Source: a virus. Taken from it: a DNA stretch of 64,000 bases. Below the pieces are notes generated by a model, which was not told the DNA's origin, did no database searches, and saw only the letters and a list, made by a program, of their open reading frames with translations. The stretch spans positions 32,001 through 96,000 of IMG/VR virus record IMGVR_UViG_3300046777_001715, one strand, 5' to 3'. This document shows, in pieces, positions 2,788-61,343 of the stretch. Numbering within the stretch: position 1 is the stretch's first letter; every line of letters starts with the position of its first letter. A program made the position numbers and the translations under genes.

Positions 2788-3519
2788 ATGAGATATATAA
2801 ACGATTTAACGTCGGATGTTTCTGGCTATACAAAATCACAAAAAGACATTCTTCTTTACGCTACAAATAGACACTGGGGAGTTCCAGTATTTAAAATAGA
2901 TAACTTTGTCGGCGGGGCACAGTTCACACCATTTGGAAAGTTAAGACAGCTTCTGCTAGAGCTTGGTTCAAGAGAAAATATGATCTCAGATCAGGAGCTT
3001 AAAATAGAAAGAACAAAGCTAGAAATTGAATTAGAAAAAGAAAGAATTCAGCTTTCAAGCTCTCCTGTAGAAATAAAAATTCACGAACTTAATATTAAGG
3101 AAAAAGAAAGACTTCTATTAACTCAAAAAAATTCTGTTAGCTTGATATACGAAGAAAGAGATAAGTATATGATGTTAATAGATAAGTTTAATAATTCAGA
3201 AGAAGGCAAGCTTCCAGATGGCAGACTTATTATGGATATTATTGGAAACCATGAGGAAGAAGAAAGGCTAGAGGCAGAACTTTGGGGCATTAGACTTGGT
3301 GCACAAGCGGCATACGATTTAATGTTTTACGGAAGAGTTAATGGCGGAAACATGGAGGCAATTGATCAACTTCCAAAAGAAGTAAGAGAGATAGCTTTGG
3401 AGCATGCTGTATTTAAAGCAATTGAAACAAATAAGCAGCTAGACTCCCTACAGATAGAGGTTAAGAAAAGGCTGGAGCTTGCAGATTCAGAAACAAACTT
3501 GTGGGAAGAGCTTGAGTGA
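2788..3519 (+). CDS. Hypothetical coiled-coil protein (U32 cassette)
   Basis: 243-aa ORF with SD and a Glu/Lys/Leu heptad region. Confidence 0.6.
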   Translation: MRYINDLTSDVSGYTKSQKDILLYATNRHWGVPVFKIDNFVGGAQFTPFGKLRQLLLELGSRENMISDQELKIERTKLEIELEKERIQLSSSPVEIKIHELNIKEKERLLLTQKNSVSLIYEERDKYMMLIDKFNNSEEGKLPDGRLIMDIIGNHEEEERLEAELWGIRLGAQAAYDLMFYGRVNGGNMEAIDQLPKEVREIALEHAVFKAIETNKQLDSLQIEVKKRLELADSETNLWEELE

Positions 3520-4064
3520 TTTATTTTTTATTTGATGTAGAGGACAACGCCTCTTATATAGAGGAGGTTGGATCATGGGGCAATGTAATGGTTGGAGCGG
3601 TAGATGAAAGTCTACTTTTGTATATAAACCTTCCATCTATTACAGTCGTGCCAAAAGATGTGGCGTATGCCTGGAAATTTGCTGGCAAATACAAAGGCTC
3701 TATTAGCGTAAGAGAGAATACAGTCCCTTATAATCAAATAGACAAATCATTGCTTGAGCCATACAAAGATAAGTTTAAGTATACCTTGTCTGATTTAGAT
3801 AAAGAAAATAGTTGCCTCTTTCATAAAGCCATAATGCATTTTCTTTTAAATAAATATTATGCCAATAAAATTTTAATTTCAAACTCTACACCCGTTGAGC
3901 TAAGGAATGACAAGTGGGAGTCTGAGGTAGAGCTAATAATTAAGAAAAATAAAATAATTGCAGAGATAGAGTCTTGTCAAGATTGGCAAGAAACTGGTAT
4001 ACTAATATCTGATAGATTTGGAGTTGGGCATAATCCTGACGCCGTAGCCAAAATAGATTTGTAG
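3516..4064 (+). CDS. Hypothetical protein (U32 cassette)
   Basis: GTGA overlap with the upstream gene; 182 aa. Confidence 0.6.
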   Translation: MIYFLFDVEDNASYIEEVGSWGNVMVGAVDESLLLYINLPSITVVPKDVAYAWKFAGKYKGSISVRENTVPYNQIDKSLLEPYKDKFKYTLSDLDKENSCLFHKAIMHFLLNKYYANKILISNSTPVELRNDKWESEVELIIKKNKIIAEIESCQDWQETGILISDRFGVGHNPDAVAKIDL

Positions 4065-4068
4065 GAAA

Positions 4069-5733
4069 ATGTTTAGTGTACCATTAAACCCAAAGTTAAA
4101 TGAAAAGCAAACAATTGAGTTTATCCAGTTCCTAAAGGAATATAGTAAATACATTTATGATTTTTATTTTACTTGCAGAATCCCCCCATTTACACAAGAT
4201 GCCATGGGCGACATTTTTGAGGGCAAAGAAGAAGACTATTCTTATTTAATTAATCTAGCTCTCCACATTCAGGCTGAGACTGGAATTACAGCATCAGCAG
4301 TATTTAACAATACAGAGGTAAGGCCATCACAACAAAACCTAGATTTGTTTATTGAAAGTTTTGCACCACTCTATGATTTAGGAATTAGATCTGCAACAAT
4401 ACCACATACTCATTGGATGGCTACTGGACAGATAAAAAAAGCTTTTCCAGAATTGTTTGTTAAAAACACAATCCTTAGAAATGTTTCAGAACCTAGAGAC
4501 ATAGAGAAGCTGGCTAAGGCTGGCTTTGATTATATAAATTTAGACCGTGATCTAATGAGGGACCACGAAAAGCTAAAAAGATTTAAGAAAGCCAAGCAAC
4601 AATTTGGGGTAAAGCTATCTTTGTTGGCAAATGAAGGCTGCTATGGCGGCTGTATAATGATGGACGAACACTATCAGTTTAACAATACCCGTACAGATGG
4701 GCCTCAATATTTTAATGATCCTATAAGCAGAGTGTCCTGCCCAAAATGGGATCATGAAGATTTTGCGGTATCATTAAAAACAGCCAATTTCCCACCATGG
4801 CGTGAAGACTGGCAAGAGTTTTTAGACGACCTTGGAATTGATGTTATTAAGATGCATGGGCGGGAATCCCATACAAGGCTAAAAGAAACCATGGATATAA
4901 TCAGGAGGTATGCCAACAATGAAGAAATTCTATTTGACAGCTTTAATGATTTTATTGAAGAAACTAATATGGTTGACAAACCGATTACCATCTGGCGTAA
5001 TAAGATCAAAAATTGTAAATTTGATTGCTGGGATTGTGGCTATTGTGACAAAATAATGGCTGCCAAATATGGCAACCACATAAATCCAAAAGTTGCTATG
5101 GTGGCAAAAGAATTAGTTGATTCTGTAAATAGCCCAATTGAAATTAATATTCCAGGTCTTACTTCTACTAGGGTTCAATCCCTTATAAATGGTTTAGCAA
5201 AGAACTCTTCTAGGTACCTTGAGATTGGGTCTTATCAGGGTGCTACAGCGTCTGCCGCTTTAATGGGTAATAGATTGGATGCGTACTTTGTAGACATGTG
5301 GCAGGAAGCTCCACAGGCCGTTAGAGAAGGGTGGGAAACTCCTACAACAAATACCTTGCAAGAATTTAAAAACAATATAGCTCCATACAAGGGTAACAAT
5401 AAGGTATTTATATCTAACTCAGATATGTTTAAAGTTAATTTATCAAAGATCTCAGATATTGATTTATTCTTTTATGATGGCCCACATGATTTTGAATCAA
5501 CAAAAGATGCGGTTAGATATTACTCTACAACCTTTGCAGATCAATCTATTTTAATATTTGATGATGCAAATTGGACGGAAGTGGTTCAGGGTGCACACAA
5601 AGGCATAATTGAATCTGGGCTAAAAATATTGTATAGTAAGAAGATACTGAATTCCTTAGAGTCGGAAAAAGACTGGTGGAACGGTATTTATATAGTTGTA
5701 GTAGAAAAGGAAAATAATGGAAATCACAACTAG
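4069..5733 (+). CDS. Peptidase U32-family (Fe-S hydroxylase-like) domain fused to a class I SAM methyltransferase (Methyltransf_24-like)
   Basis: U32-like motifs INLDRDLMRD, LLANEGCYGGC, SC, IKMHGRE and CKFDCWDCGYC. Methyltransferase motifs YLEIGSYQG, VDMW, DLFFYDGPHDF and IFDDANW. Confidence 0.75.
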   Translation: MFSVPLNPKLNEKQTIEFIQFLKEYSKYIYDFYFTCRIPPFTQDAMGDIFEGKEEDYSYLINLALHIQAETGITASAVFNNTEVRPSQQNLDLFIESFAPLYDLGIRSATIPHTHWMATGQIKKAFPELFVKNTILRNVSEPRDIEKLAKAGFDYINLDRDLMRDHEKLKRFKKAKQQFGVKLSLLANEGCYGGCIMMDEHYQFNNTRTDGPQYFNDPISRVSCPKWDHEDFAVSLKTANFPPWREDWQEFLDDLGIDVIKMHGRESHTRLKETMDIIRRYANNEEILFDSFNDFIEETNMVDKPITIWRNKIKNCKFDCWDCGYCDKIMAAKYGNHINPKVAMVAKELVDSVNSPIEINIPGLTSTRVQSLINGLAKNSSRYLEIGSYQGATASAALMGNRLDAYFVDMWQEAPQAVREGWETPTTNTLQEFKNNIAPYKGNNKVFISNSDMFKVNLSKISDIDLFFYDGPHDFESTKDAVRYYSTTFADQSILIFDDANWTEVVQGAHKGIIESGLKILYSKKILNSLESEKDWWNGIYIVVVEKENNGNHN

Positions 5734-6634
5734 TTTGATTACAGATAATCAACAGTACTTGTTGCTTTTGGCAACGGTTATGGGGTTGTCTTTTTGGGCA
5801 AAAAAGACTCAGGTATTTTTGCCAGTTTATAAGTTCATTGCTGATAGAGTAAAGTCAAAAAGAGCAGTCGTTGCACTAATCTCTTTGATCTCAGGAGTTC
5901 TTCCAGTTAATGGTAGAGCATCAATTTCTGCAGGAGCCCTAGATACAGTTGCTCCAAACAATGAAAAAAGAAAAGTTTTTGGAATTATTGATTACCTTTC
6001 AACGCACCACTATTATTTCTGGTCTCCACTAGAGGCTACAGTTTTGGTTCCAATGGCGGCATTAAGCATTTCTTATGCAGAATTTATGGGACGCATTTGG
6101 CCATTGTTAGTAACAGCCCTAATTATAATTTTGTATTATATCTTTAAGGTTGTAAAAGAAGACGAAGTTGAGATTAACATTAACAAGTCGCTAACCCCAA
6201 CAACATGGAAAGAAGATAGAAAGCAGATTAGGTCATATGCAACCACCCTTCTTTTTGTTGGTTTGGTGATTATTCTTAGCAACATCGTAAAGGCAAATTT
6301 TGATCAAATTAATGCATGGGTAAATTCAGCACATGATGAAGGTCTTTTGGTTCTAGTAGCTTTGGCTGGATTCCTTGCCAGCTTTGCTTTGGGAAGTAGC
6401 GGAAAGTTTGCTGGCTTTACTTCTCTGTCTGCAACGGTTTATGGGGTAGAGTACCTACCTCTGTTCTTTGCAATAGACTATGCTGGCTACATGTTGGCCC
6501 CAACTCACAAATGCCTAATTATTACAAAGTCCTATTTTGATACCCCAATCAAGAAGCACTACAAAGCAGTCTTCGCCCTAGTGGTGCCGATTGTCCTTGT
6601 GGGAATTTTGACCTATTTAACAATAGACAGCTAG
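5717..6634 (+). CDS. Multi-pass membrane protein, DUF401 / ion-transporter-superfamily-like
   Basis: About 8-9 hydrophobic segments. HHYYFWSPL and GYMLAPTHKCLIITKSYF resemble the DUF401 C-terminal SPxHxCL motif. Confidence 0.55.
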   Translation: MEITTSLITDNQQYLLLLATVMGLSFWAKKTQVFLPVYKFIADRVKSKRAVVALISLISGVLPVNGRASISAGALDTVAPNNEKRKVFGIIDYLSTHHYYFWSPLEATVLVPMAALSISYAEFMGRIWPLLVTALIIILYYIFKVVKEDEVEININKSLTPTTWKEDRKQIRSYATTLLFVGLVIILSNIVKANFDQINAWVNSAHDEGLLVLVALAGFLASFALGSSGKFAGFTSLSATVYGVEYLPLFFAIDYAGYMLAPTHKCLIITKSYFDTPIKKHYKAVFALVVPIVLVGILTYLTIDS

Positions 6635-7425: not shown

Positions 7426-8394
7426 ATGGCTGTAGCAAATTCAACTACACAAATCATAATGCCAGGTTTAGATGCGGCAATTCAGACAAATCTAAACACA
7501 GCGCTTAATAGCAATACTACACTTCAGAGCGTTTTGGCTTCTGTAGGAAATATTCCACTAAAGGTAGTTAAGCCAGTTACAGTTAAGTTGAACACAACAC
7601 AGTACTGGGTAAGACCAGCTGACACACTTTCTTCAGTAGAAGTTATTCTTGTTGGCGGCGGTGGCGGAGGCGGTCAAGGCCACTCATCAAGTCACGCAGG
7701 TGGCGGAGGTGGCGGAGGCCAAGTAGTTAGAAGAAATGTTGATATTGCATCAGTTGCTACAGGGCAAGGAATTCTTGTAACTATTGGTGCTGGTGGAGAT
7801 GCTCGCTCAGGAAGCGGAAATACTAATGGCGGAAATGGTGGACAATCAACTTTCGGTACATTGCTAACTGCAGGCGGTGGTGGTGGCGGTGGAGCTTATG
7901 GACAACACTCACCACAATCAGTTGGTTCAACTGGTGGCGGAGGTTCACGTAGTGCTCACTCAGGAGCAGGCGGTGGCGGTGGCGCAGGTGGCGCAGGTGG
8001 ACATGCATTCTGCTCACACAATCATTACAACTGGTATATTCGTGCAGGACACTCTTCACACTCTCCAACTGGAGATGAAGGTGCATCAGCTGGTGGACAA
8101 GGGCAGTCAGCAGACAGCTCTTCCGATCAAGGTTGCTGCGGTGGCGATGGAGGTCCAGGACTTTACGGCTTCGGCGGAGGCGGAGGTGGCGCAGGCTATC
8201 ATGGCCCAGGAAATGGAGCTAACGGTGGAGGAAATGGCGGTAACGCTACAAACTATGGCGGAATTGGATGTAACGGAGCTCAGGGAATTGACGGCACAGG
8301 CGGTGGCGGTGGTGGAGCAGACAATGGCTGTACATCAGGACGTGGTGGAAATGGAACATGCGTTATTACATATTGGCTAAAGGAGACAGCATAA
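7426..8394 (+). CDS. Glycine-rich adhesin-like protein (copy 1)
   Basis: W.RP ... VEVILVGGGGGGG ... VTIGAGG ... STFG ... GGNGTCVITY, a polyglycine domain common in phage fibre tips. Confidence 0.7.
   Translation: MAVANSTTQIIMPGLDAAIQTNLNTALNSNTTLQSVLASVGNIPLKVVKPVTVKLNTTQYWVRPADTLSSVEVILVGGGGGGGQGHSSSHAGGGGGGGQVVRRNVDIASVATGQGILVTIGAGGDARSGSGNTNGGNGGQSTFGTLLTAGGGGGGGAYGQHSPQSVGSTGGGGSRSAHSGAGGGGGAGGAGGHAFCSHNHYNWYIRAGHSSHSPTGDEGASAGGQGQSADSSSDQGCCGGDGGPGLYGFGGGGGGAGYHGPGNGANGGGNGGNATNYGGIGCNGAQGIDGTGGGGGGADNGCTSGRGGNGTCVITYWLKETA
7864..7904 (+). repeat. 41-bp exact direct repeat, copy 1 (copy 2 at 9639..9679)
   Basis: CTAACTGCAGGCGGTGGTGGTGGCGGTGGAGCTTATGGACA occurs in both Gly-rich genes. 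Confidence 0.85.
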
Positions 8395-9200: not shown

Positions 9201-10181
9201 ATGGCAGTCAATTCCACCACTAAGTTAACAGTTCTACCAGGTCTAGATACAACCATGCAGACAAACATGCAGGTTGCTTTAAACTCAAATGCTACATTGG
9301 CATCAGTTATTTCTGCAACTGGTGGAGTTTCGACAAAGCTACTTAAGCCAGTAACTGTAAAGTTTAACTCTACAGGAAACTGGACTCGTCCAGCAAATAC
9401 AATGTCTTCAGTTGAAGTTATTCTTGTCGGCGGTGGCGGAGGAGGCGGAGGCTGCCATGCTTCAGGTCACTCAGGCGGTGGCGGAGGAGGCGGACAGGTT
9501 ATCCGACGCTTTGTTGATATCTCAGCAACTGCTCCAGGACAGAACATCCTTGTCACAATCGGTGGCGGAGGAACAAACGTTTCTGGAAACTCAAATACAA
9601 ATGGCGGAAATGGCGCAAACTCAACATTTGGCACATATCTAACTGCAGGCGGTGGTGGTGGCGGTGGAGCTTATGGACAGGTTGGTGCACAAGGCACAGG
9701 AGGCTCATCTGGTGGTGGAGGATCTCGTGGAGACCACGCAGCAGGCGGTGGCGGTGGCGGAGCAGCCCAGACAGGCCAAAGAGGTTATTGCTTTATGAAT
9801 CATGCTTATTGGTATGTAAGACCAGGATATGGATCTTATACACCAACTGGTGCAAACGGTGGAGATGGTGCATCTTCTGGAGGAACTGGAATGGAATCTG
9901 GTTCTTCTTCAGATCAAAATTGCTGTGGCGGAAATGGCGGATACGGTCTTTACGGCTTCGGCGGAGGCGGCGGAGGCGGCGGAGACTACGGAGTTGGTTC
10001 AGGTTCTAACGGTGGTGGAAACGGTGGATCTCGTGTATCTTACTCACCTTATGGAAGAAGCGCTTCTCCAGGAATTAACGGTACAGGCGGTGGCGGAGGC
10101 GGTTGTTCAGACGGCGCTACTTCTGGCGTAGGTGGATCTGGAACCTGCTTAATCACATACTATATAAAAGAGAGCTCATAA
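9201..10181 (+). CDS. Glycine-rich adhesin-like protein (copy 2)
   Basis: Colinear paralog of 7426..8394. Confidence 0.7.
   Translation: MAVNSTTKLTVLPGLDTTMQTNMQVALNSNATLASVISATGGVSTKLLKPVTVKFNSTGNWTRPANTMSSVEVILVGGGGGGGGCHASGHSGGGGGGGQVIRRFVDISATAPGQNILVTIGGGGTNVSGNSNTNGGNGANSTFGTYLTAGGGGGGGAYGQVGAQGTGGSSGGGGSRGDHAAGGGGGGAAQTGQRGYCFMNHAYWYVRPGYGSYTPTGANGGDGASSGGTGMESGSSSDQNCCGGNGGYGLYGFGGGGGGGGDYGVGSGSNGGGNGGSRVSYSPYGRSASPGINGTGGGGGGCSDGATSGVGGSGTCLITYYIKESS
9639..9679 (+). repeat. 41-bp exact direct repeat, copy 2
   Basis: Identical to 7864..7904. Confidence 0.85.
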
Positions 10182-11704: not shown

Positions 11705-13996
11705 ATGGCATACAGACAATATGGAAACGTAATAAATACACTAAATATAAAAGCTAAAAATATATTTAATTGGAACACTAATTATCCAGATACATACGGA
11801 TACACAAATTTAAACTCAGTAAATGCCCACACAATTATTAAAAGATCTGGAATTAAAGTTGCTACTGGTACAGGGCAACTTCTTGGATTCGTGCCTTCTT
11901 TAATTGGACTAAATTTTGACACAGCATCACTTATTCTTAGAAATGCTGGATTCACACCAGACCCAAACTATATATTTTCAAATAGTATAGGCTTTCAGCA
12001 ATATCTTGCTCAGGGTGGTTATGTTTCTGCACAGGCCCCCGCACCTTCATCATCTTCTGGAACACTTCTGGCTTTTGGTTCTAGCGTTAGAATGGACGTA
12101 ATCCTTTATACAACAAATCCAATTGATAACAGCACTGTTCCAAATGCACCGTTATGGTCAAACGCAACATCTGGAGATTCTTCTGTTACTTTAACATTTT
12201 TAACACCAGCAAACGGTGGCTCACCAATTACAAGATATGAATATTCTATAACAAACGGAGCAACTTGGATAAATGTAAATCTTCCAATAGATAACACGTT
12301 TACGGTTTCAAGTTTAAGTAATGGAGTTAATTACACTTTTTATATTAGAGCAGTTAATGCTAAAGGAAACTCTGCATCATCTTCTGGTGTAACTAAAGCT
12401 CCTAGCAGCGGAAGTGGTGGAGGTCAGCTAACTGTTCCAGGCGCACCAACATTTACAGTGTCATTTATTACCAACACATCATTTAGAATTGATTTAACTC
12501 CACCAACAAATAACGGCGGAGCAGAAATTATTAGATACCAGCATACATTAGATAATGGAGTTAGCTGGACAAATGATTTTACAAATACAGGACCAATTAC
12601 AGTTTCTTCATTAAGCCCAGGTTCAACTTTTCAGGTTGGATTAAGAGCTGTTAACTCTGTTGGAAGCGGAAATTCAAGTCCTATACAATCTGTATCAACA
12701 ACACAAGTAGTTCCAGATCTTACTGGTATATCTGTAAACTCAGCCAAATCAATTATTACAGCTTCTGGTTATGTATATGGAGATGGAACAATCTCTGCTT
12801 CAAATAACCAATTTTTTCTTGATTATCCTGGAGGGTATGTTACAGCACAATCTCCAACGGCAGGAGCAACCTTAGCTGGCGGCGGAACAGTAAGACTTGA
12901 CTTTACTCAATATTTGTCAGCACCATCTTTTGGAACGGTTCCAAACGTTATTGGCCTAACTCTTTCAGAGGCAGTTACAAGAATACAGCAGGCTGGATAT
13001 TCAAATATATCTTATGTTACAACTTCAGATCCAAACAGAGTCTATCAACAGATTTATGCACAAAACCCAGTTTCTGGAACAGCAGCACTTGTTAATACTC
13101 AAATTACAATTAGTTATTCAGATTATACTGGATCAATTGCAATTCCAACTAATACAGTTCTTCCAAGTATTACATATGACAATCTTTATATTGGCTCAAG
13201 ATTTGCTGCCGTTCCTGGATCTTGGACAGACAGCCCTACATCCTACGCATATCAGTGGTTTGACTCAAACGGAAACAATTTTATAAACGCCACAAGCGCA
13301 ACGTTTATTGCAGGTGCTTCAGCAATTTCTAGATCGGTAAGATTAAAGCTTGCAGCAACAAATGCAGTTGGAACAAGCTCATACGTTTCAGCATTAAATT
13401 CCTACGGACCAATTAAAGATTTATTTCAGCCAACATCAATTGAATATGGACTAACAAATCCAAGACAAAAAACACAGCTTAATATAAGATGGTCTGGAGG
13501 AGACGCTCCATTTTATTTTGTTGGTGTGTATAAACCAGGCACCTCTTCTTATGTAACAACTAGAATTGTTACAACAGAATCAGCTTCAATAACAGGACTT
13601 TTTGAAGGGACAAATTATTACATTCAAATTTTTGCCAACAATAACAATGAATATTCAACTGGTTCAAAAACAAGTCAAGTTTTGTCAACTGTGTATCCAG
13701 CCGCCTCAGCAACACCAGTTCTAAATACAGCCACAAAGTCTGGAAATGCAATTAATTTTACAGCAACAAAAGGTTCTAATACTGGAGCTCTTTATATGAT
13801 ATTGGAAACAACATCTGGGGGTTCCGTGTCTAATGCAGTTGCTCAATATTTTGGATATGATCAGTCCACAAACAGTGTTTCTGGTTCATACGATATAACA
13901 AATATTGAATCTGGAACATACAGGCTAACTGCTTATGGATGGAATGAAGACTACAATACTTCATTAGCTGGTTCTTCTGTACAACTTACGATATAA
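11705..13996 (+). CDS. PASTA + fibronectin type III multidomain virion-type protein
   Basis: Three PASTA-like repeats (VPSLIGL..., VPDLTGI..., VPNVIGL...AQNP..G) and FN3 motifs (P.NGGSPITRYEYS ... YTFYIRAVNAKG). Confidence 0.75.
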   Translation: MAYRQYGNVINTLNIKAKNIFNWNTNYPDTYGYTNLNSVNAHTIIKRSGIKVATGTGQLLGFVPSLIGLNFDTASLILRNAGFTPDPNYIFSNSIGFQQYLAQGGYVSAQAPAPSSSSGTLLAFGSSVRMDVILYTTNPIDNSTVPNAPLWSNATSGDSSVTLTFLTPANGGSPITRYEYSITNGATWINVNLPIDNTFTVSSLSNGVNYTFYIRAVNAKGNSASSSGVTKAPSSGSGGGQLTVPGAPTFTVSFITNTSFRIDLTPPTNNGGAEIIRYQHTLDNGVSWTNDFTNTGPITVSSLSPGSTFQVGLRAVNSVGSGNSSPIQSVSTTQVVPDLTGISVNSAKSIITASGYVYGDGTISASNNQFFLDYPGGYVTAQSPTAGATLAGGGTVRLDFTQYLSAPSFGTVPNVIGLTLSEAVTRIQQAGYSNISYVTTSDPNRVYQQIYAQNPVSGTAALVNTQITISYSDYTGSIAIPTNTVLPSITYDNLYIGSRFAAVPGSWTDSPTSYAYQWFDSNGNNFINATSATFIAGASAISRSVRLKLAATNAVGTSSYVSALNSYGPIKDLFQPTSIEYGLTNPRQKTQLNIRWSGGDAPFYFVGVYKPGTSSYVTTRIVTTESASITGLFEGTNYYIQIFANNNNEYSTGSKTSQVLSTVYPAASATPVLNTATKSGNAINFTATKGSNTGALYMILETTSGGSVSNAVAQYFGYDQSTNSVSGSYDITNIESGTYRLTAYGWNEDYNTSLAGSSVQLTI

Positions 13997-15820: not shown

Positions 15821-16156
15821 ATGGACATTAAAAGCATGAAGAAGCAGATCGTCGAAGAGACGACTTTGGGCATTTACGTATGGGAAATGCCAGATGGACG
15901 ATGGATTGGTGACGACGACGGCAACTTCCTTTCTGTTACTTCAATGAAGGGCAACCGTGTAAAAATGGACATGCTTGCCAGAGAAGTCCGATCTTACGGA
16001 ATTTATGAGGGGCAGCCAAAATTTCTTTCTGGTCGCAGAAAAATTGACGACGAAGAATTTGAGTATCAAAAGCAAAGACTTGAGTGGGGCCTAGTTCCAG
16101 ATCAGTTAGATATTGGCGTCTATAAAGACGAAATGAAAAAGGCAGGAAATAGATGA
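15821..16156 (+). CDS. Hypothetical protein preceding portal
   Basis: 111 aa; ATGA-coupled to the portal gene. Confidence 0.65.
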   Translation: MDIKSMKKQIVEETTLGIYVWEMPDGRWIGDDDGNFLSVTSMKGNRVKMDMLAREVRSYGIYEGQPKFLSGRRKIDDEEFEYQKQRLEWGLVPDQLDIGVYKDEMKKAGNR

Positions 16157-17745
16157 AAGCTCAATACGAAGAAGACACAGAGTCCCTAGAAAACGAAATC
16201 AGATTAAGCACATATGCTGACATGGTTCGTTTTACAAAAGCTCAGGAGTCTGGATCTCCAGACGAGTTTAAGATTTCTGCAGAAGAGATGCAGAAGATGT
16301 CTGGAATGTCTCCAGCGTTTAGAAGAAAGCTTAGCAGAGAACTTTCAAAAGCTTTTACTGGAAAAGATGGGGCGGAAACACAGCAGAGCCTTTTAGCACA
16401 AGCAATCACAGGGTATGCATTCCTTGATGTTATTGAGCCAGTATATAACCTAGAATACCTTTCAAGACTTTACGAAATCTCTACATATAATTATGCAGCA
16501 TGTAATGCTAAAACCTCAAACATTGTTGGTCTAGGATATCAATTTTTAGAAACAAGAAAAACAAACGATGCGCTTGATGGAATCAGCGATGAGAAGCAGT
16601 TGGAAAGAGCACGTAGAAAGCTTTCAAAGCTTAAGCAAGATCTTCAAGACTGGCTAGATCAGTGCAACAGTGAAGACACATTCCAAGAAACTCTGATTAA
16701 AGTCTGGACAGATTACGAAGCAACAGGTAACGGATACTTAGAAGTTGGCAGAACTGTTCGTGGAGACATTGGATATATTGGACATATTCCAGCAAAGACA
16801 ATGAGAGTCCGAAGACTAAGAGACGGATTTGTTCAGCTTCTTTTTGGTAAGATTGTTTTCTTTAGAAACTATGGAGACCAAGAAACCCCTAATCCAATTT
16901 TGGGTGGGAATGACAGGCCTAATGAAATTATTCACCTTAAGAAGTACACTCCAGTAAATCAATACTATGGAGTGCCAGACATTGTTGCAGCCCAAAACTC
17001 TTTGGCTGGAAATGAATTTGCTGCAAAGTACAACCTTGACTATTTTGAGAATAAAGCGGTTCCAAGATATATTATTACAGCAAAGGGAGCAAAGCTTTCA
17101 CCAGAGTCAGAAAGAAAGCTTCTAGAGTTTTTCCAAGTTGGACTTAAGGGAAAAAATCACAGATCCCTGTATATTCCTCTTCCAGCAGATACTCCAGAAT
17201 CTAAGGTTGAATTTAAGATGGAGCCAATTGAGGCTGGCACACAGGAAGGCTCATTTGATAAATACCGTAAGGCAAATAGAGATGAAATGCTATTGGCTCA
17301 CCGTGTTCCAATTAACAAGGTTGGAACTCCAGAGGGGGTTAATTTAGCGGTAGCCCGTGATGCAGATAAGACATTTAAAGAGCAGGTATGTCGTCCAGCA
17401 CAGATGAGACTTGAAAAGAAATTAAATGCAATTATCGAAGAAAAGACGGATGCTCTAGTAATTAAATTTAATGAGTTAAGTCTTACTGATGAAGATACTC
17501 AGTCTAAGATTGACGAGAGATATTTGAGAATGCAGGTAATTACCCCTAATGAAGTTAGAATTAGAAAGGGTATGATCCCTCTAGACGGAGGAGACGAAGT
17601 CGTAGATTTAAAGGGTGAAGCTGCTGCAGAGCAAACAGCTCAGGCTGGAAAAACTAGAGCCAGAGATGGAGAAAGAGCAGCAAATTCCCCAGATAAATCT
17701 GGAGAAGGTAGAAATGCAAAGGGCGACGGAAGGCAAGTAGAGTAA
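16153..17745 (+). CDS. Portal protein
   Basis: DYEATGNGYLEV ... NEIIHLK ... YYGVPD ... YFENKAVP ... ITPNEVR motifs; upstream of protease and capsid. Confidence 0.92.
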   Translation: MKAQYEEDTESLENEIRLSTYADMVRFTKAQESGSPDEFKISAEEMQKMSGMSPAFRRKLSRELSKAFTGKDGAETQQSLLAQAITGYAFLDVIEPVYNLEYLSRLYEISTYNYAACNAKTSNIVGLGYQFLETRKTNDALDGISDEKQLERARRKLSKLKQDLQDWLDQCNSEDTFQETLIKVWTDYEATGNGYLEVGRTVRGDIGYIGHIPAKTMRVRRLRDGFVQLLFGKIVFFRNYGDQETPNPILGGNDRPNEIIHLKKYTPVNQYYGVPDIVAAQNSLAGNEFAAKYNLDYFENKAVPRYIITAKGAKLSPESERKLLEFFQVGLKGKNHRSLYIPLPADTPESKVEFKMEPIEAGTQEGSFDKYRKANRDEMLLAHRVPINKVGTPEGVNLAVARDADKTFKEQVCRPAQMRLEKKLNAIIEEKTDALVIKFNELSLTDEDTQSKIDERYLRMQVITPNEVRIRKGMIPLDGGDEVVDLKGEAAAEQTAQAGKTRARDGERAANSPDKSGEGRNAKGDGRQVE

Positions 17746-31707: not shown

Positions 31708-33689
31708 TGATTCCAGTTGTGCAAGGGGTAAAAGACCTACTAAATAAAAATACATCTTTATCCATAGGGGCTGGTGCCACAATGGATATTAATGTCAACT
31801 CCATGGTTTCATTTACACCCACATCAATTACTGGAACAGAGTATCAAACAATTAATGGGCGTCAGCCATTTAAAAAGTTATTTCCTTTAGATACAATTAT
31901 TAAGCCTTCAAGACCACAGCTTGCTGGAATTAAATATGGAATTTCTGGAGACATTCAAACTAAAACATATGCTGATCCAAAATCGGTTGACTATAAGCCA
32001 TCTGCTCAATCTGCAAATGTTATTAAGTATAGAACTTACTTTCCAGGAAATTCTGTATACTATAAGTATTGGCTTACGCCTTTAAATACACCAGCATCAG
32101 TTTCAATTACTTACCCCAAAACAGTATACGCAAACAAGGTAACCCTTAAGTTTGAGATCAGCCACGCAACACCATCTGCTTGGACAATTAATATTGGCGG
32201 GACAACAGTGTCTGGTACTGCTGCAGACATTAAAAGCTTTACAAGTACTGGAAATGATGCAGGAACAGTTTCAATATATTACAATGGAACAACATGGTCA
32301 AAGAATGTTTCAGACTTAAACCTATCATCATTTAAATCATTTACCACTTTGGCTATGACAGCCACAAACCCAGGCGGATACATTGGGGTAATTGAACTGG
32401 CACCACATTATGTAACAGACATTTCCCAGTACATAGTGGACTTTGACCTAAGAAAAGAATCTTCTGCAAGTACAGAAGCGCTTGTTCCAGTTGGAAATAT
32501 TACTGCAAACTCACTAACCTTGAACTTAAACGCATATAGGGGAACAACTTCTTCAGGCACAATTCCATTTAAATCGTATTCCAAATCAGATGTGATTGAT
32601 ACATCAAATATTTATTTTCACAAAAATGCTGAAGTAAATCTATTTATTAAGCTGTATGATGCAGCAGGAGAGTCTTTAGATACTCGTGGAAAATATTATA
32701 GAATTCAGCAAGGAATATTCTATTTAGATCAATGGAGTATATCTGAGTTTGGAGATGCAACACTAGACTTACTAGATGCTGCAAAAACTTTGCAAGACAC
32801 ACTTGCTCCAGATTTATTGTGTGAGGGATACTCATCTATTGCGATTATTAGAAGGCTATTGGATTCTGTTGGATTTACAAATTACACTTTTAAGTACAAA
32901 GAAAATGATAACTCTATAATCTCTCCAAATTATTGGTGGTCGGATAGCACAGCAACTGTTTGGGAAAATCTTCAATCGTTGTGCAGGGACTCACAAATGA
33001 GTGCCTTTGTTGATGAATTTGGAACACTTCAGTTCTACACAAGGGAATACCTTTTTGGCACAGCTGACACATCCTGGACTTTTAGATATGATGCACTTAA
33101 AGATGCACAGCAAAACATATTAGAACATGCCAACATTGAATCTTTTAACAAGGTAGATCTTCCTTCAGCAAATCAGGTAAAGGTTGTTTACTACAGCACA
33201 GTTACATCTTCTTATGAGCAAAGCAGCGCACCTCTTTGGTCTTCTGGCACTTCTTGGCTTGCGGCGGCGGCCCTTACAGAAAATTTATTGGCAACAGACT
33301 TACCTACAACTACAACAAAAGTTTATATGACAATTAAACCAATAACATTAAATACACTTTCAGAAGAGCAGACTGTTTATAGTTTTTCTGGACATTTCCT
33401 TTTGGGGTCAGAAGTAATTGAATATGACGCAATTCAATATCAGTACACTGATATATCAACTGGATTACCAGCAACAATAGATGTTACTGGAGAGTCAGAT
33501 TTGTTAAAATATCGTGGCAAGGCAGCGATTGTACAAAATGGTCCAAAGTTTTCAACTACATTTGTCCCAAGCGGAAAATACAGAGTTAAAACAAGAGGAG
33601 CATTTGGAACAACAGTTGAAAATCACTATGTGAATGCAAAACAAGAAGCAGCTGGCTGGGTAGGAAAATCAGGGGCGGTGTGGAAATAA
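31707..33689 (+). CDS. Tail tip/hub protein (N-part)
   Basis: TVWENLQSLC.DSQMSAFVDEFG.LQF hub-like motif. Confidence 0.65.
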   Translation: MIPVVQGVKDLLNKNTSLSIGAGATMDINVNSMVSFTPTSITGTEYQTINGRQPFKKLFPLDTIIKPSRPQLAGIKYGISGDIQTKTYADPKSVDYKPSAQSANVIKYRTYFPGNSVYYKYWLTPLNTPASVSITYPKTVYANKVTLKFEISHATPSAWTINIGGTTVSGTAADIKSFTSTGNDAGTVSIYYNGTTWSKNVSDLNLSSFKSFTTLAMTATNPGGYIGVIELAPHYVTDISQYIVDFDLRKESSASTEALVPVGNITANSLTLNLNAYRGTTSSGTIPFKSYSKSDVIDTSNIYFHKNAEVNLFIKLYDAAGESLDTRGKYYRIQQGIFYLDQWSISEFGDATLDLLDAAKTLQDTLAPDLLCEGYSSIAIIRRLLDSVGFTNYTFKYKENDNSIISPNYWWSDSTATVWENLQSLCRDSQMSAFVDEFGTLQFYTREYLFGTADTSWTFRYDALKDAQQNILEHANIESFNKVDLPSANQVKVVYYSTVTSSYEQSSAPLWSSGTSWLAAAALTENLLATDLPTTTTKVYMTIKPITLNTLSEEQTVYSFSGHFLLGSEVIEYDAIQYQYTDISTGLPATIDVTGESDLLKYRGKAAIVQNGPKFSTTFVPSGKYRVKTRGAFGTTVENHYVNAKQEAAGWVGKSGAVWK

Positions 33690-60742: not shown

Positions 60743-60816
60743 GTGGTAGTAGCTTAGTCGGTTAAAGCCCCGAACTCATAATTCGGTAATCGTAGGTTCG
60801 AGTCCTACCTACCGCA
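60743..60816 (+). tRNA. tRNA with CAT anticodon (elongator Met or Ile2); no encoded CCA
   Basis: Acceptor GTGGTAG/CTACCGC-A, anticodon arm CCGAA-CTCATAA-TTCGG, T arm GTAGG-TTCGAGT-CCTAC. Confidence 0.9.
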
Positions 60817-60829
60817 CAAGGAGAAAGAA

Positions 60830-61265: not shown

Positions 61266-61338
61266 GCCCTTGTAGCTCAGCGGATAGAGCGAGACTCTTC
61301 TAAGGTCTGCGTCGGAGGTTCGATTCCTTCCAGGGGCG
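61266..61338 (+). tRNA. tRNA-Arg(TCT); no encoded CCA
   Basis: Acceptor GCCCTTG/CAGGGGC-G, anticodon arm AGACT-CTTCTAA-GGTCT, T arm GGAGG-TTCGATT-CCTTC. Confidence 0.93.
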
Positions 61339-61343
61339 CAAAA

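Follow-up and report, generated by a model that had tools for sequence, protein, structure and literature searches.

A viral gene described here joins a divergent U32-like barrel to a class I methyltransferase, probably an O-methyltransferase, bears a distinct signature of seven cysteines and sits in a conserved phage gene cassette. It lies on the + strand at positions 4069–5733 of a 64,000-nucleotide stretch of DNA (the window), which spans positions 32,001 to 96,000 of IMG/VR virus record IMGVR_UViG_3300046777_001715, a record of 106 kb that is 99% complete. The family has been catalogued only as 'hypothetical', its fused form as phrog_1458, the barrel alone as phrog_36869 and the cyanophage ortholog as T4-GC 354 (PMC3037559). 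By analogy with known U32 systems, the gene may encode a two-module, O2-independent enzyme that hydroxylates and then O-methylates its substrate, a reading whose chances we judge to be about even. Literature searches for a phage U32–methyltransferase enzyme, or for any study of the family, found none, in keeping with the initial annotation of this DNA, which knew of no characterised phage enzyme with such an architecture. The parts of the protein, in window coordinates, are as follows.

4069–5733, + strand: fusion open reading frame (ORF) of 554 amino acids, identified from the ORF list, the phrog_1458 match and homologues

4069–5100, + strand: N-terminal domain (residues 1–344), an eight-stranded β/α barrel, divergent and U32-like, with a helical Cys-rich tail (AlphaFold2, Foldseek, VIA-align and hhalign)

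4639–4740, + strand: C191 and C195 (E-G-C-x3-C after strand 7, then E200-H201) together with C224, a proposed catalytic-face metal or Fe–S site (conservation and TrhP alignment)

5014–5046, + strand: C316-x3-C320-x2-C323-x2-C326, an extra motif absent from U32 proteins (invariant in 76 of 76 representatives)

5131–5715, + strand: class I S-adenosylmethionine (SAM) methyltransferase domain (residues ~355–549), Methyltransf_24, with a COMT/TylF-type O-methyltransferase fold (PF13578 and VIA-align)

The ORF list and its translation give a single uninterrupted frame. All the motifs listed in the initial annotation are present at the places quoted there: NEGCYGGC (residues 188–195), C224, KMHGRE (261–266) and CKFDCWDCGYC (316–326) in the N-terminal part, and LEIGSYQG (384–391), YDGPH (469–473) and FDD (497–499) further on. 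Seven of the eight cysteines are conserved and all seven fall in the N-terminal part; the remaining one is C36, and the C-terminal domain has none.

Homologues of the fusion protein number 1912 at E ≤ 1e-3 among 8000 scored candidates. Many are 547–554 residues long, 85–95% identical and drawn from independent metagenomes, so the frame does not arise by chance. In the PHROG collection, phrog_1458 spans the whole protein (E 6e-165) and phrog_36869 the N-terminal part alone. Homologues are present in 126 phage records, full length in 121 of them, and nearly all of these come from T4-like cyanophages. Matches also occur in three records of Ralstonia phages, of which the one examined, jumbo phage RP31, contains the N-terminal part only. 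The fusion gene is seen again in freshwater and riverine metagenomes from about 15 studies, and RNA-library contigs from three freshwater studies cover it, one of them crossing the domain junction (4799–5228). A fusion created by sequencing artefact is rejected, because many independent full-length homologues of 547–554 residues exist and both DNA and RNA-library contigs run across the junction. The RNA-library contigs are a weak hint that the gene is expressed: they leave parts of the cassette uncovered, may reflect DNA carry-over, and do not permit strand, level or true transcription to be read.

The start of the ortholog is misplaced in at least one deposited genome. The annotation of cyanophage P-SSM4 (PSSM4_035, L007 6127–7692) begins about 40 codons late and clips the first barrel strand, the tblastn match starting at locus position 6001 as against the annotated 6127. 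The phrog_1458 match likewise begins only at residue 46.

An AlphaFold2 model of residues 1–344, built from the family alignment, is a confident barrel of eight β/α units (predicted local distance difference test score (pLDDT) 92.2, predicted template modelling score (pTM) 0.91) whose helical C-terminal tail bears the four-cysteine motif. On its secondary-structure map, the conserved barrel residues lie at or just past the points where the strands end C-terminally, on the face that TIM barrels generally use for catalysis. In a Foldseek search of the PDB, the top match is the U32 protein Mk0906 (5D88; E 4e-7, TMt 0.70, root-mean-square deviation (rmsd) 4.2), with generic barrels at an rmsd of about 8. 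VIA-align, which is independent of Foldseek and covered 48,161 representative chains, also ranks 5D88 first (Z 16.7, rmsd 3.1, 223 of 247 residues aligned); the runners-up, MetF (Z 13.2) and CutC (Z 12.6), leave a gap of 3.5 Z to the generic TIM barrels. Structure prediction thus bore out the U32-like TIM barrel that the initial annotation had expected. Outside the barrel family itself, the matches among the viral models of BFVD are headed by 'Peptidase [Escherichia phage OLB35]', whose E value of 1.6e-10 beats those of generic barrels by five orders of magnitude, and the neighbours of the protein in the Atlas language-model map are mostly viral clusters automatically named 'Peptidase U32 (Fragment)', in some of which 20% of members carry PF01136.

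Profile comparisons point in the same direction at lower strength. When the family alignment A1 is compared by hhalign with TrhP (YegQ), RlhA (YdcP), UbiU and UbiV of Escherichia coli, the matches are weak (probability 32–45%, E 2–5e-4). Five sub-alignments of the family each match the same TrhP region (residues ~46–159) at P values of 2e-4 to 1e-2, as against 0.025–0.43 for reversed-sequence controls, and a relaxed threshold yields a colinear match over 290 columns. The high-confidence block pairs GIDVIKMHGRE with GVHSLKIEGR of U32 proteins, setting KMHGR against the KIEGR of TrhP, and the K-x-x-G-R motif on the last barrel strand (K261-M-H-G264-R265) fits the U32 K-I-E-G-R pattern. With lower confidence, C191-x3-C195 is paired with C193-x3-C197 of TrhP, the third and fourth U32 cysteines.

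Conservation was assessed on an alignment of 76 sequences, the window protein among them, based on 75 representatives of clusters formed at 50% identity whose barrel is nearly complete. C316, C320, C323 and C326 are invariant throughout, and C191, C195, C224, E189, E200, H201, K261, G264 and R265 are each kept in at least 90% of the 76 clusters, so the conservation of the cysteines that had been proposed from the single sequence is upheld. Among the 36 stand-alone homologues of A1 (26–47% identity), the invariant columns are F41 and all seven cysteines (C191, C195, C224, C316, C320, C323 and C326). These signature residues (the seven cysteines, E189, E200, H201, K261, G264 and R265) persist down to 20–25% identity, and a distant subgroup (alignment A6, 394–474 residues) retains them in the order E-x-C-x3-C-x4-E-H, C, K-x-x-G-R, C-x3-C-x2-C-x2-C.

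The barrel shares with U32 proteins (PF01136, Mk0906) the (β/α)8 architecture, K-x-x-G-R on the last strand, C-x3-C after strand 7 and a strict conservation of cysteines that points to Fe–S. It differs from them in that the CX6C pair is missing and C224 stands in its place, in its extra four-cysteine tail and in the lack of the U32 C-terminal domain; as a family it is also mostly viral, found in fibre-gene neighbourhoods and accompanied by a coiled-coil partner. A whole-library phmmer search with residues 1–344 returned 315 relatives, mostly stand-alone proteins of 330–460 residues without a Pfam family. We read the barrel family as a distant branch of the U32 superfamily, largely viral and outside the Pfam family, that has lost the first U32 cysteine pair, uses C224 instead and has gained the invariant four-cysteine tail. 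This tail could hold a second Fe–S cluster or a Zn site; the seven cysteines together may correspond to two [4Fe-4S] clusters, or to one cluster and a Zn.

The C-terminal domain is a class I methyltransferase, as the initial annotation had it. Methyltransf_24 (PF13578) matches residues 384–499 with 38 bits against a cut-off of 26.3 (E 3e-9), and a full-length AlphaFold2 model has alternating β and α elements over residues 382–547 at a pLDDT of about 93. Foldseek on the full-length model returned generic methyltransferase and TIM-barrel matches only. On VIA-align re-ranking, ranks 1–12 and 14–27 (Z 16.7–15.3) are taken by TrmR and by cation-dependent O-methyltransferases of the catechol or sugar type, and rank 13 is an unnamed methyltransferase. 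Individual scores are 16.7 for TomG and for the Streptomyces avermitilis COMT, 16.6 for MeT1, 16.3 for SafC and 15.6 for TrmR; other neighbours include Rv0187, a Synechocystis cation-dependent O-methyltransferase, PFOMT and SpnH. No TrmR-type NCBIfam model matches the domain, and TrmR is a close fold neighbour of it whose orthology is not established.

Nearly invariant residues of this domain are E385, G387 and G391 (motif I), D409, D470, D498, D499 and N501; H473, three residues past D470, is kept in most aligned homologues and falls outside that list. D470, H473, D498-D499 and N501 follow strands 4 and 5, a placement shared with COMT. The invariant residues fit a SAM site together with an Asp/Asp/Asn metal site, the predicted equivalence to the COMT ligands being one of position alone. 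The phage domain shares the Rossmann-like fold of its top structural matches, COMT, CCoAOMT, TomG, SafC, MeT1 and MycF/SpnH (Methyltransf_3/24, TylF), with motif I, D409 after strand 2, and D470, D498-D499 and N501 at the presumed metal-binding positions; it differs from these cation-dependent enzymes in an identity below 18% and in its fusion to a predicted Fe–S barrel. From its fold neighbours, O-specificity is likely but not proven.

The two modules also occur as separate genes. In an IMG/VR lineage represented by P0131, hereafter the split lineage, a barrel gene of 346 amino acids is directly followed and overlapped by a methyltransferase homologue of 220–232 amino acids (E ~1e-45 to the domain of the window protein) in 79 of 80 loci; the 80th ends too early to tell. 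The 80 loci are close relatives and hence count as a single evolutionary event. A search for related loci from P0195 led mostly back to this lineage, and one from P0140 gave no loci. The expectation that homologues would be linked to a methyltransferase, whether fused or adjacent, thus stands for the cyanophages and the split lineage and fails as a general rule, since the fused form accounts for no more than about 4 of 76 clusters and the partner is missing from RP31 and from ten bacterial loci. From the fused and split lineages on one side, and RP31, the bacterial loci and the distant subgroup on the other, the methyltransferase emerges as a recurrent, non-obligatory accessory of the barrel.

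The reading frame, folds, conservation and gene linkage described above are the observations from which we infer Fe–S binding, hydroxylation, O-methylation and the order of the two steps. In the mechanism that we propose, module 1 (residues 1–344) would be a cytoplasmic (β/α)8 barrel, a remote relative of TrhP, RlhA and UbiU/UbiV, in which C191, C195 and C224 most likely hold a [4Fe-4S] cluster on the catalytic face. C316, C320, C323 and C326 would hold a second cluster or Zn, and could replace the cluster of the second subunit of U32 heterodimers. This module would hydroxylate an sp2 carbon without O2. Module 2 (residues ~355–549), a putative metal-dependent SAM O-methyltransferase of the COMT/TylF type, would then methylate the new hydroxyl to give a methoxy group, and the enzyme would act within a conserved late-gene cassette of the tail-fibre module.

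Two known systems follow a similar logic. In Bacillus subtilis, the operon trmR (yrrM)–trhP2 (yrrN)–trhP1 (yrrO) combines a U32 pair with an O-methyltransferase to make 5-methoxyuridine at tRNA position 34 (PMC6599085, PMC6158493). This precedent, which the initial annotation described correctly (PMC6599085), offers the same pairing of U32 and COMT-like activities and the same expected logic; the phage form is instead one polypeptide or two overlapping genes, a single barrel replaces TrhP1/TrhP2, and the phage enzyme lacks an RNA-related domain, lies in a structural module and is coupled to a membrane protein. The substrates of UbiU and UbiV are polyprenyl-phenols, and the O-methyltransferase UbiG is required as well (PMC6747719, PMC10990095). 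The likeness here is hydroxylation followed by O-methylation in a membrane context, and in the UbiU–UbiV system, with UbiT and UbiG, a functional unit has two metal sites divided between its subunits, where the phage enzyme may have two in one chain. The phage enzyme differs in having no UbiT/SCP2 partner, no UbiG-type methyltransferase and a DUF401-like membrane partner, and in that its hosts share no quinone type.

Several observations weigh against a two-step hydroxylase–methyltransferase. Peptidase_U32 (PF01136, cut-off 22.4 bits) has no match in the fusion protein at E ≤ 1, and across the 76 family representatives the best single member reaches only E 0.033; the hhalign probabilities against the E. 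coli U32 proteins are likewise low, at 32–45%. The [4Fe-4S] cluster of U32 proteins is bound by a four-cysteine motif, CX6CX15CX3/4C (PMC6747719), which is not kept in the barrel, where the pattern is C-x3-C-x28-C and C-x3-C-x2-C-x2-C, so that cluster ligation and chemistry may differ from those of U32. The part of the initial annotation that stood is a TIM barrel (pLDDT 92) whose nearest solved structure is a U32 protein and whose K-x-x-G-R and C-x3-C align with U32, and the part that did not is a recognisable PF01136 domain with the U32 cysteine motif. The full-length model has a pTM of 0.59, with a low-confidence cysteine loop and an undefined relative orientation of the domains. C- and N-methyltransferases trail the O-methyltransferases at Z ~15, on a gradient from 16.7 that is shallow enough to leave O-specificity unproven.

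Linkage gives further points on this side. Methyltransf_24 is found in 4 of the 76 aligned representatives, the window protein included; RP31 encodes its barrel without this methyltransferase anywhere in the genome; ten loci from bacterial metagenome-assembled genomes (MAGs) or chromosomes (Victivallales, Deltaproteobacteria, Bacteroidales, Halarcobacter, Bacillota and others) also lack it; and only 1 of 80 distant-subgroup loci has it. As most family members are neither fused to nor beside this methyltransferase, the reaction of the barrel does not require methylation. The U32 precedent itself is less firm than the initial annotation, which called these proteins established hydroxylases, would have it: up to PMC10990095, direct hydroxylation by a U32 protein had not been demonstrated in vitro, and the reaction is thought to depend on prephenate as the oxygen donor (PMC10990095). 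We place the two-step reading no higher than even because the cysteine ligation is unlike that of U32, most relatives lack the methyltransferase, O-specificity is read from fold neighbours and U32 hydroxylation rests on genetics.

Other database searches gave little. A six-frame PF01136 search of the whole phage genome found none (control genomes were positive), Pfam assigned no family to the N-terminal domain and NCBIfam none to the fusion protein, and PDB sequence and profile searches with the whole protein, the N-domain profile and the C-domain returned nothing meaningful.

One alternative is that the barrel is not a hydroxylase and performs other Fe–S or Zn chemistry (radical-SAM-like, a reduction or dehydration, or that of a 'U32 collagenase' peptidase), with the methyltransferase acting independently on the same substrate. 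The un-U32-like cysteine pattern fits this alternative, as does the C-x3-C-x2-C segment, which has radical SAM spacing and lies beside a SAM-binding domain; most lineages have the barrel without this methyltransferase, and U32 chemistry is itself unproven in vitro (PMC10990095). However, the fusion protein has no PF04055 match, and among the best 50 of the 48,161 chains there is no radical SAM, IspG or ThiC structure, U32 standing first. Whereas the radical SAM superfamily has its CX3CX2C after the first strand, the C-x3-C-x2-C here (residues 316–323) lies C-terminally, behind the barrel, and is extended by a fourth cysteine, and the K-x-x-G-R and C-x3-C elements align with U32. We consider this alternative unlikely.

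The gene occupies the fourth place in a tight run of five + strand genes; its four companions are listed below.

1855–2772, + strand: first cassette gene, encoding a Gly/Ser/Asn-rich 'propeller' protein (phrog_1417, E 5e-48) similar to T4-GC 351, 'sericin 1 precursor-like'

2788–3519, + strand: coiled-coil protein (phrog_1409, E 7e-28), corresponding to T4-GC 353 (PHROG and phmmer)

3516–4064, + strand: protein of 182 amino acids whose start overlaps the previous stop by 4 nucleotides (position-conserved homologues)

5717–6634, + strand: polytopic membrane protein, DUF401/TIGR00529-like (phrog_14035), overlapping the fusion ORF by 17 nucleotides

Fibre and fibre-assembly genes lie upstream (291–1854); downstream, genes for Gly_rich_2 fibre-like, lectin-like and fn3/PASTA proteins precede the portal gene at 16153. 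The membrane protein matches PF04165 (E 1e-11), phrog_14035 (E 6e-78) and TIGR00529 (E 3e-13), and a PDB sequence search with it gave nothing meaningful. Neither Pfam nor NCBIfam has a family for the coiled-coil protein, for which the Atlas shows only a resemblance to coiled-coil hairpins, and the 182-residue protein matches nothing in Pfam, PHROG or NCBIfam. TIGR00529 is the sole NCBIfam match among the partners of the enzyme. A promoter and terminator scan did not give clear operon boundaries.

By phmmer across the collected loci, homologues of the propeller protein lie upstream of the enzyme gene in 82 loci, and the coiled-coil protein has homologues in 83. Those of the 182-residue protein keep its position in 80, including L016, and those of the membrane protein come after the enzyme gene in 56. 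The coiled-coil homologue stands just upstream of the enzyme gene in the 80 split-lineage loci, locus L016, RP31 (ORF137), P-SSM4, P-HM2 and S-CAM4; no other partner accompanies the U32-like gene so constantly. Cyanophages P-SSM4, P-HM2 and S-CAM4 share the order propeller (T4-GC 351), T4-GC 352, coiled-coil (T4-GC 353) and fusion (T4-GC 354), and T4-GC 353 and 354 are listed in the same 5 of 16 cyanophages (Sullivan et al. 2010 supplement, PMC3037559). RP31 has overlapping genes for the coiled-coil protein, the barrel (ORF136) and the membrane protein, in that order. The split lineage carries up to 3–7 tandem propeller copies. Searches for a DUF401-like homologue were negative for the whole of P-SSM4 and, in P-HM2, S-ShM2 and S-CAM4, for the region up to 6 kb from the fusion gene. 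In S-ShM2 (L197 236–4288), about 5 kb of auxiliary genes, including three 2-oxoglutarate (2OG)–Fe(II) oxygenases, petE and gnd, separate T4-GC 353 from 354.

The sister cassettes of the split lineage and L016 contain a further gene, for a radical SAM protein of 332–341 amino acids, directly upstream of and overlapping the U32-like gene; representative copies are listed below.

L029:5004–6029, L080:5010–6008 and L016:4990–5997: radical SAM gene of the sister cassettes (PF04055, CX3CX2C at residues 9–16, Cys-rich SPASM-like C terminus)

This gene is absent from the genome of the window phage. A 334-residue protein of the split lineage (L080:7680–8684), encoded between the methyltransferase and DUF401-like genes, weakly resembles Phenol_MetA_deg (E 5e-4, below cut-off); PDB sequence searches with it and with the sister radical SAM protein returned nothing meaningful. 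In P0132 (579 amino acids) the barrel is C-terminal, behind a 234-residue extension with a C-x2-C-x5-C stretch that we take as a possible SPASM remnant, which would imply a fusion of a radical SAM protein to the barrel.

The 80 viral loci of the distant subgroup (L116–L195) keep all seven cysteines and none of the cassette partners. Their commonest neighbours are fibre proteins of phrog_863/21412, PHROGs that they share with the window gene at 7426–8394. Other neighbours are a regA-like translation repressor, MazG, a tryptophan halogenase and a 2OG–Fe(II) oxygenase, in a T4-like variable region.

As the cassette belongs to the tail-fibre module and includes a membrane protein, tRNA is a less likely target of the putative hydroxylase–methyltransferase than something specified by the phage or associated with the envelope, be it a protein, a peptide or a small molecule linked to the membrane. 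Within these bounds, it is conceivable but unlikely that the substrate is a phage protein, such as the propeller or fibre proteins or a small partner, which the cassette would modify post-translationally on aromatic or other side chains. The barrel family lies beside fibre or propeller genes in the actinophage-like phage of the window, the cyanomyoviruses, the split lineage and the distant subgroup, and tandem propeller paralogs stand upstream. The SPASM-like radical SAM gene that overlaps the U32-like gene in the split lineage and L016 perhaps adds a further step, and P0132 joins a Cys-rich extension and a U32-like domain in one protein; SPASM radical SAM enzymes act mostly on peptides or proteins. 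On the other hand, we know of no U32-type enzyme that acts on proteins, variable 'moron' genes often cluster near fibre genes with no functional link, and the window phage has no radical SAM gene. Cyanophage virion proteomics (PMC3037559) does not cover T4-GC 351–354. The most specific form of this idea, in which O2-independent tailoring by the barrel hydroxylates propeller or fibre side chains and the methyltransferase turns the new hydroxyls into methoxy groups, with an effect on receptor binding or on the stability of the virion, is very unlikely in our estimation.

A membrane small molecule or lipid, quinone-like or an envelope precursor, is a distinctly unlikely substrate for hydroxylation and methylation; here the DUF401-like permease would bring in the substrate, carry the product out or serve as an anchor for the enzyme. 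The 17-nucleotide overlap with the DUF401/TIGR00529-like gene, consistent with translational coupling, and the same arrangement in RP31 speak for such a substrate, as do the weak likeness of the 334-residue split-lineage protein to the Phenol_MetA_deg outer-membrane channel family and the precedent of UbiU/UbiV with UbiG on polyprenyl-phenols (PMC6747719, PMC10990095). Yet the Actinobacteria-like, cyanobacterial and Ralstonia hosts use different quinones, the DUF401-like partner was not found in the cyanophage loci examined, and no lipid-binding (UbiT/SCP2-like) partner was detected.

Least probable is a nucleic-acid target, a phage counterpart of TrhP and TrmR that would make 5-methoxyuridine-type bases in tRNA or rRNA, or a methoxy-pyrimidine in phage DNA: RNA is the substrate in two of the three U32 systems characterised, the fold of TrmR is a close match (Z 15.6), the B. 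subtilis operon pairs the same two activities (PMC6599085) and the phage carries tRNA-Met and tRNA-Arg(UCU) genes, but these tRNAs fall outside the xo5U-bearing families Ala, Leu, Pro, Ser, Thr and Val (PMC6599085), TrmR is not the top match and no TrmR-type NCBIfam model fits. Pfam and NCBIfam find only Methyltransf_24, with no other RNA- or DNA-binding domain and no U32 C-terminal motif or domain, the C-terminal motif being one described for TrhP and TrhP1 (PMC6599085). The gene also lies in a fibre module, coupled to a membrane protein and away from replication and nucleotide-metabolism genes. The tRNA or rRNA target, one of several that the initial annotation named, is opposed by the tail-fibre module, the coupled membrane protein, the constant coiled-coil partner and the missing U32 C-terminal RNA-type domain.

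Beyond the cassette, the window gives some indication of the host. The portal protein (16153–17745) is about 60% identical to Streptomyces phage portals, and a 763-residue protein in the fibre region (11705–13996) has fn3 and three PASTA domains; together they suggest that the phage infects a Gram-positive freshwater bacterium, probably an actinobacterium. Just downstream of the cassette, small genes are flanked by two fibre-like paralogs of the Gly_rich_2 type (PF21722), at 7426–8394 and 9201–10181. The tRNA genes, tRNA-Met (CAT) and tRNA-Arg (TCT), are at 60743–60817 and 61266–61339.

Barrel genes also occur outside phages and in other domain contexts. Those of Halarcobacter and Bacteroidales lie on long chromosomal contigs, with response regulators or regulators of the AraC type as neighbours, and thus represent true cellular members. 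One groundwater Deltaproteobacteria MAG has three barrel paralogs on three contigs (the L010, L011, L012 set). In the bacterial MAG locus L014:8673–9800, the next gene after that of the barrel encodes a solute-binding protein, and the one after it, two genes downstream of the barrel, a Methyltransf_2 O-methyltransferase; this may be an independent pairing with another O-methyltransferase family. One of the 76 representatives, probably P0126, has DUF7483 (E 1e-51) in the place of the methyltransferase. Used as phmmer queries, the N-terminal extension of P0132 and the odd C termini of P0126, P0127 and P0151 had no match in the collected loci.

U32 proteins are a large family whose mechanism is unsolved and of which no member has been reconstituted in vitro (PMC10990095). 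The phage barrel family is a compact, single-chain and very abundant variant, with at least 121 records from cultured cyanophages, and the O-methyltransferase built into it in several lineages points to the chemistry of its product. Cultured phage–host pairs are available, with P-HM2 and P-SSM4 growing on Prochlorococcus, S-CAM4 and S-ShM2 on Synechococcus and RP31 on Ralstonia, so that knock-outs combined with mass spectrometry could identify the substrate. The outcome would be either a new modification of virion or host made during infection, or a tractable model for U32 chemistry; should protein tailoring prove true, it would bring both a virion modification of a new kind and the first U32-type enzyme with a protein substrate.

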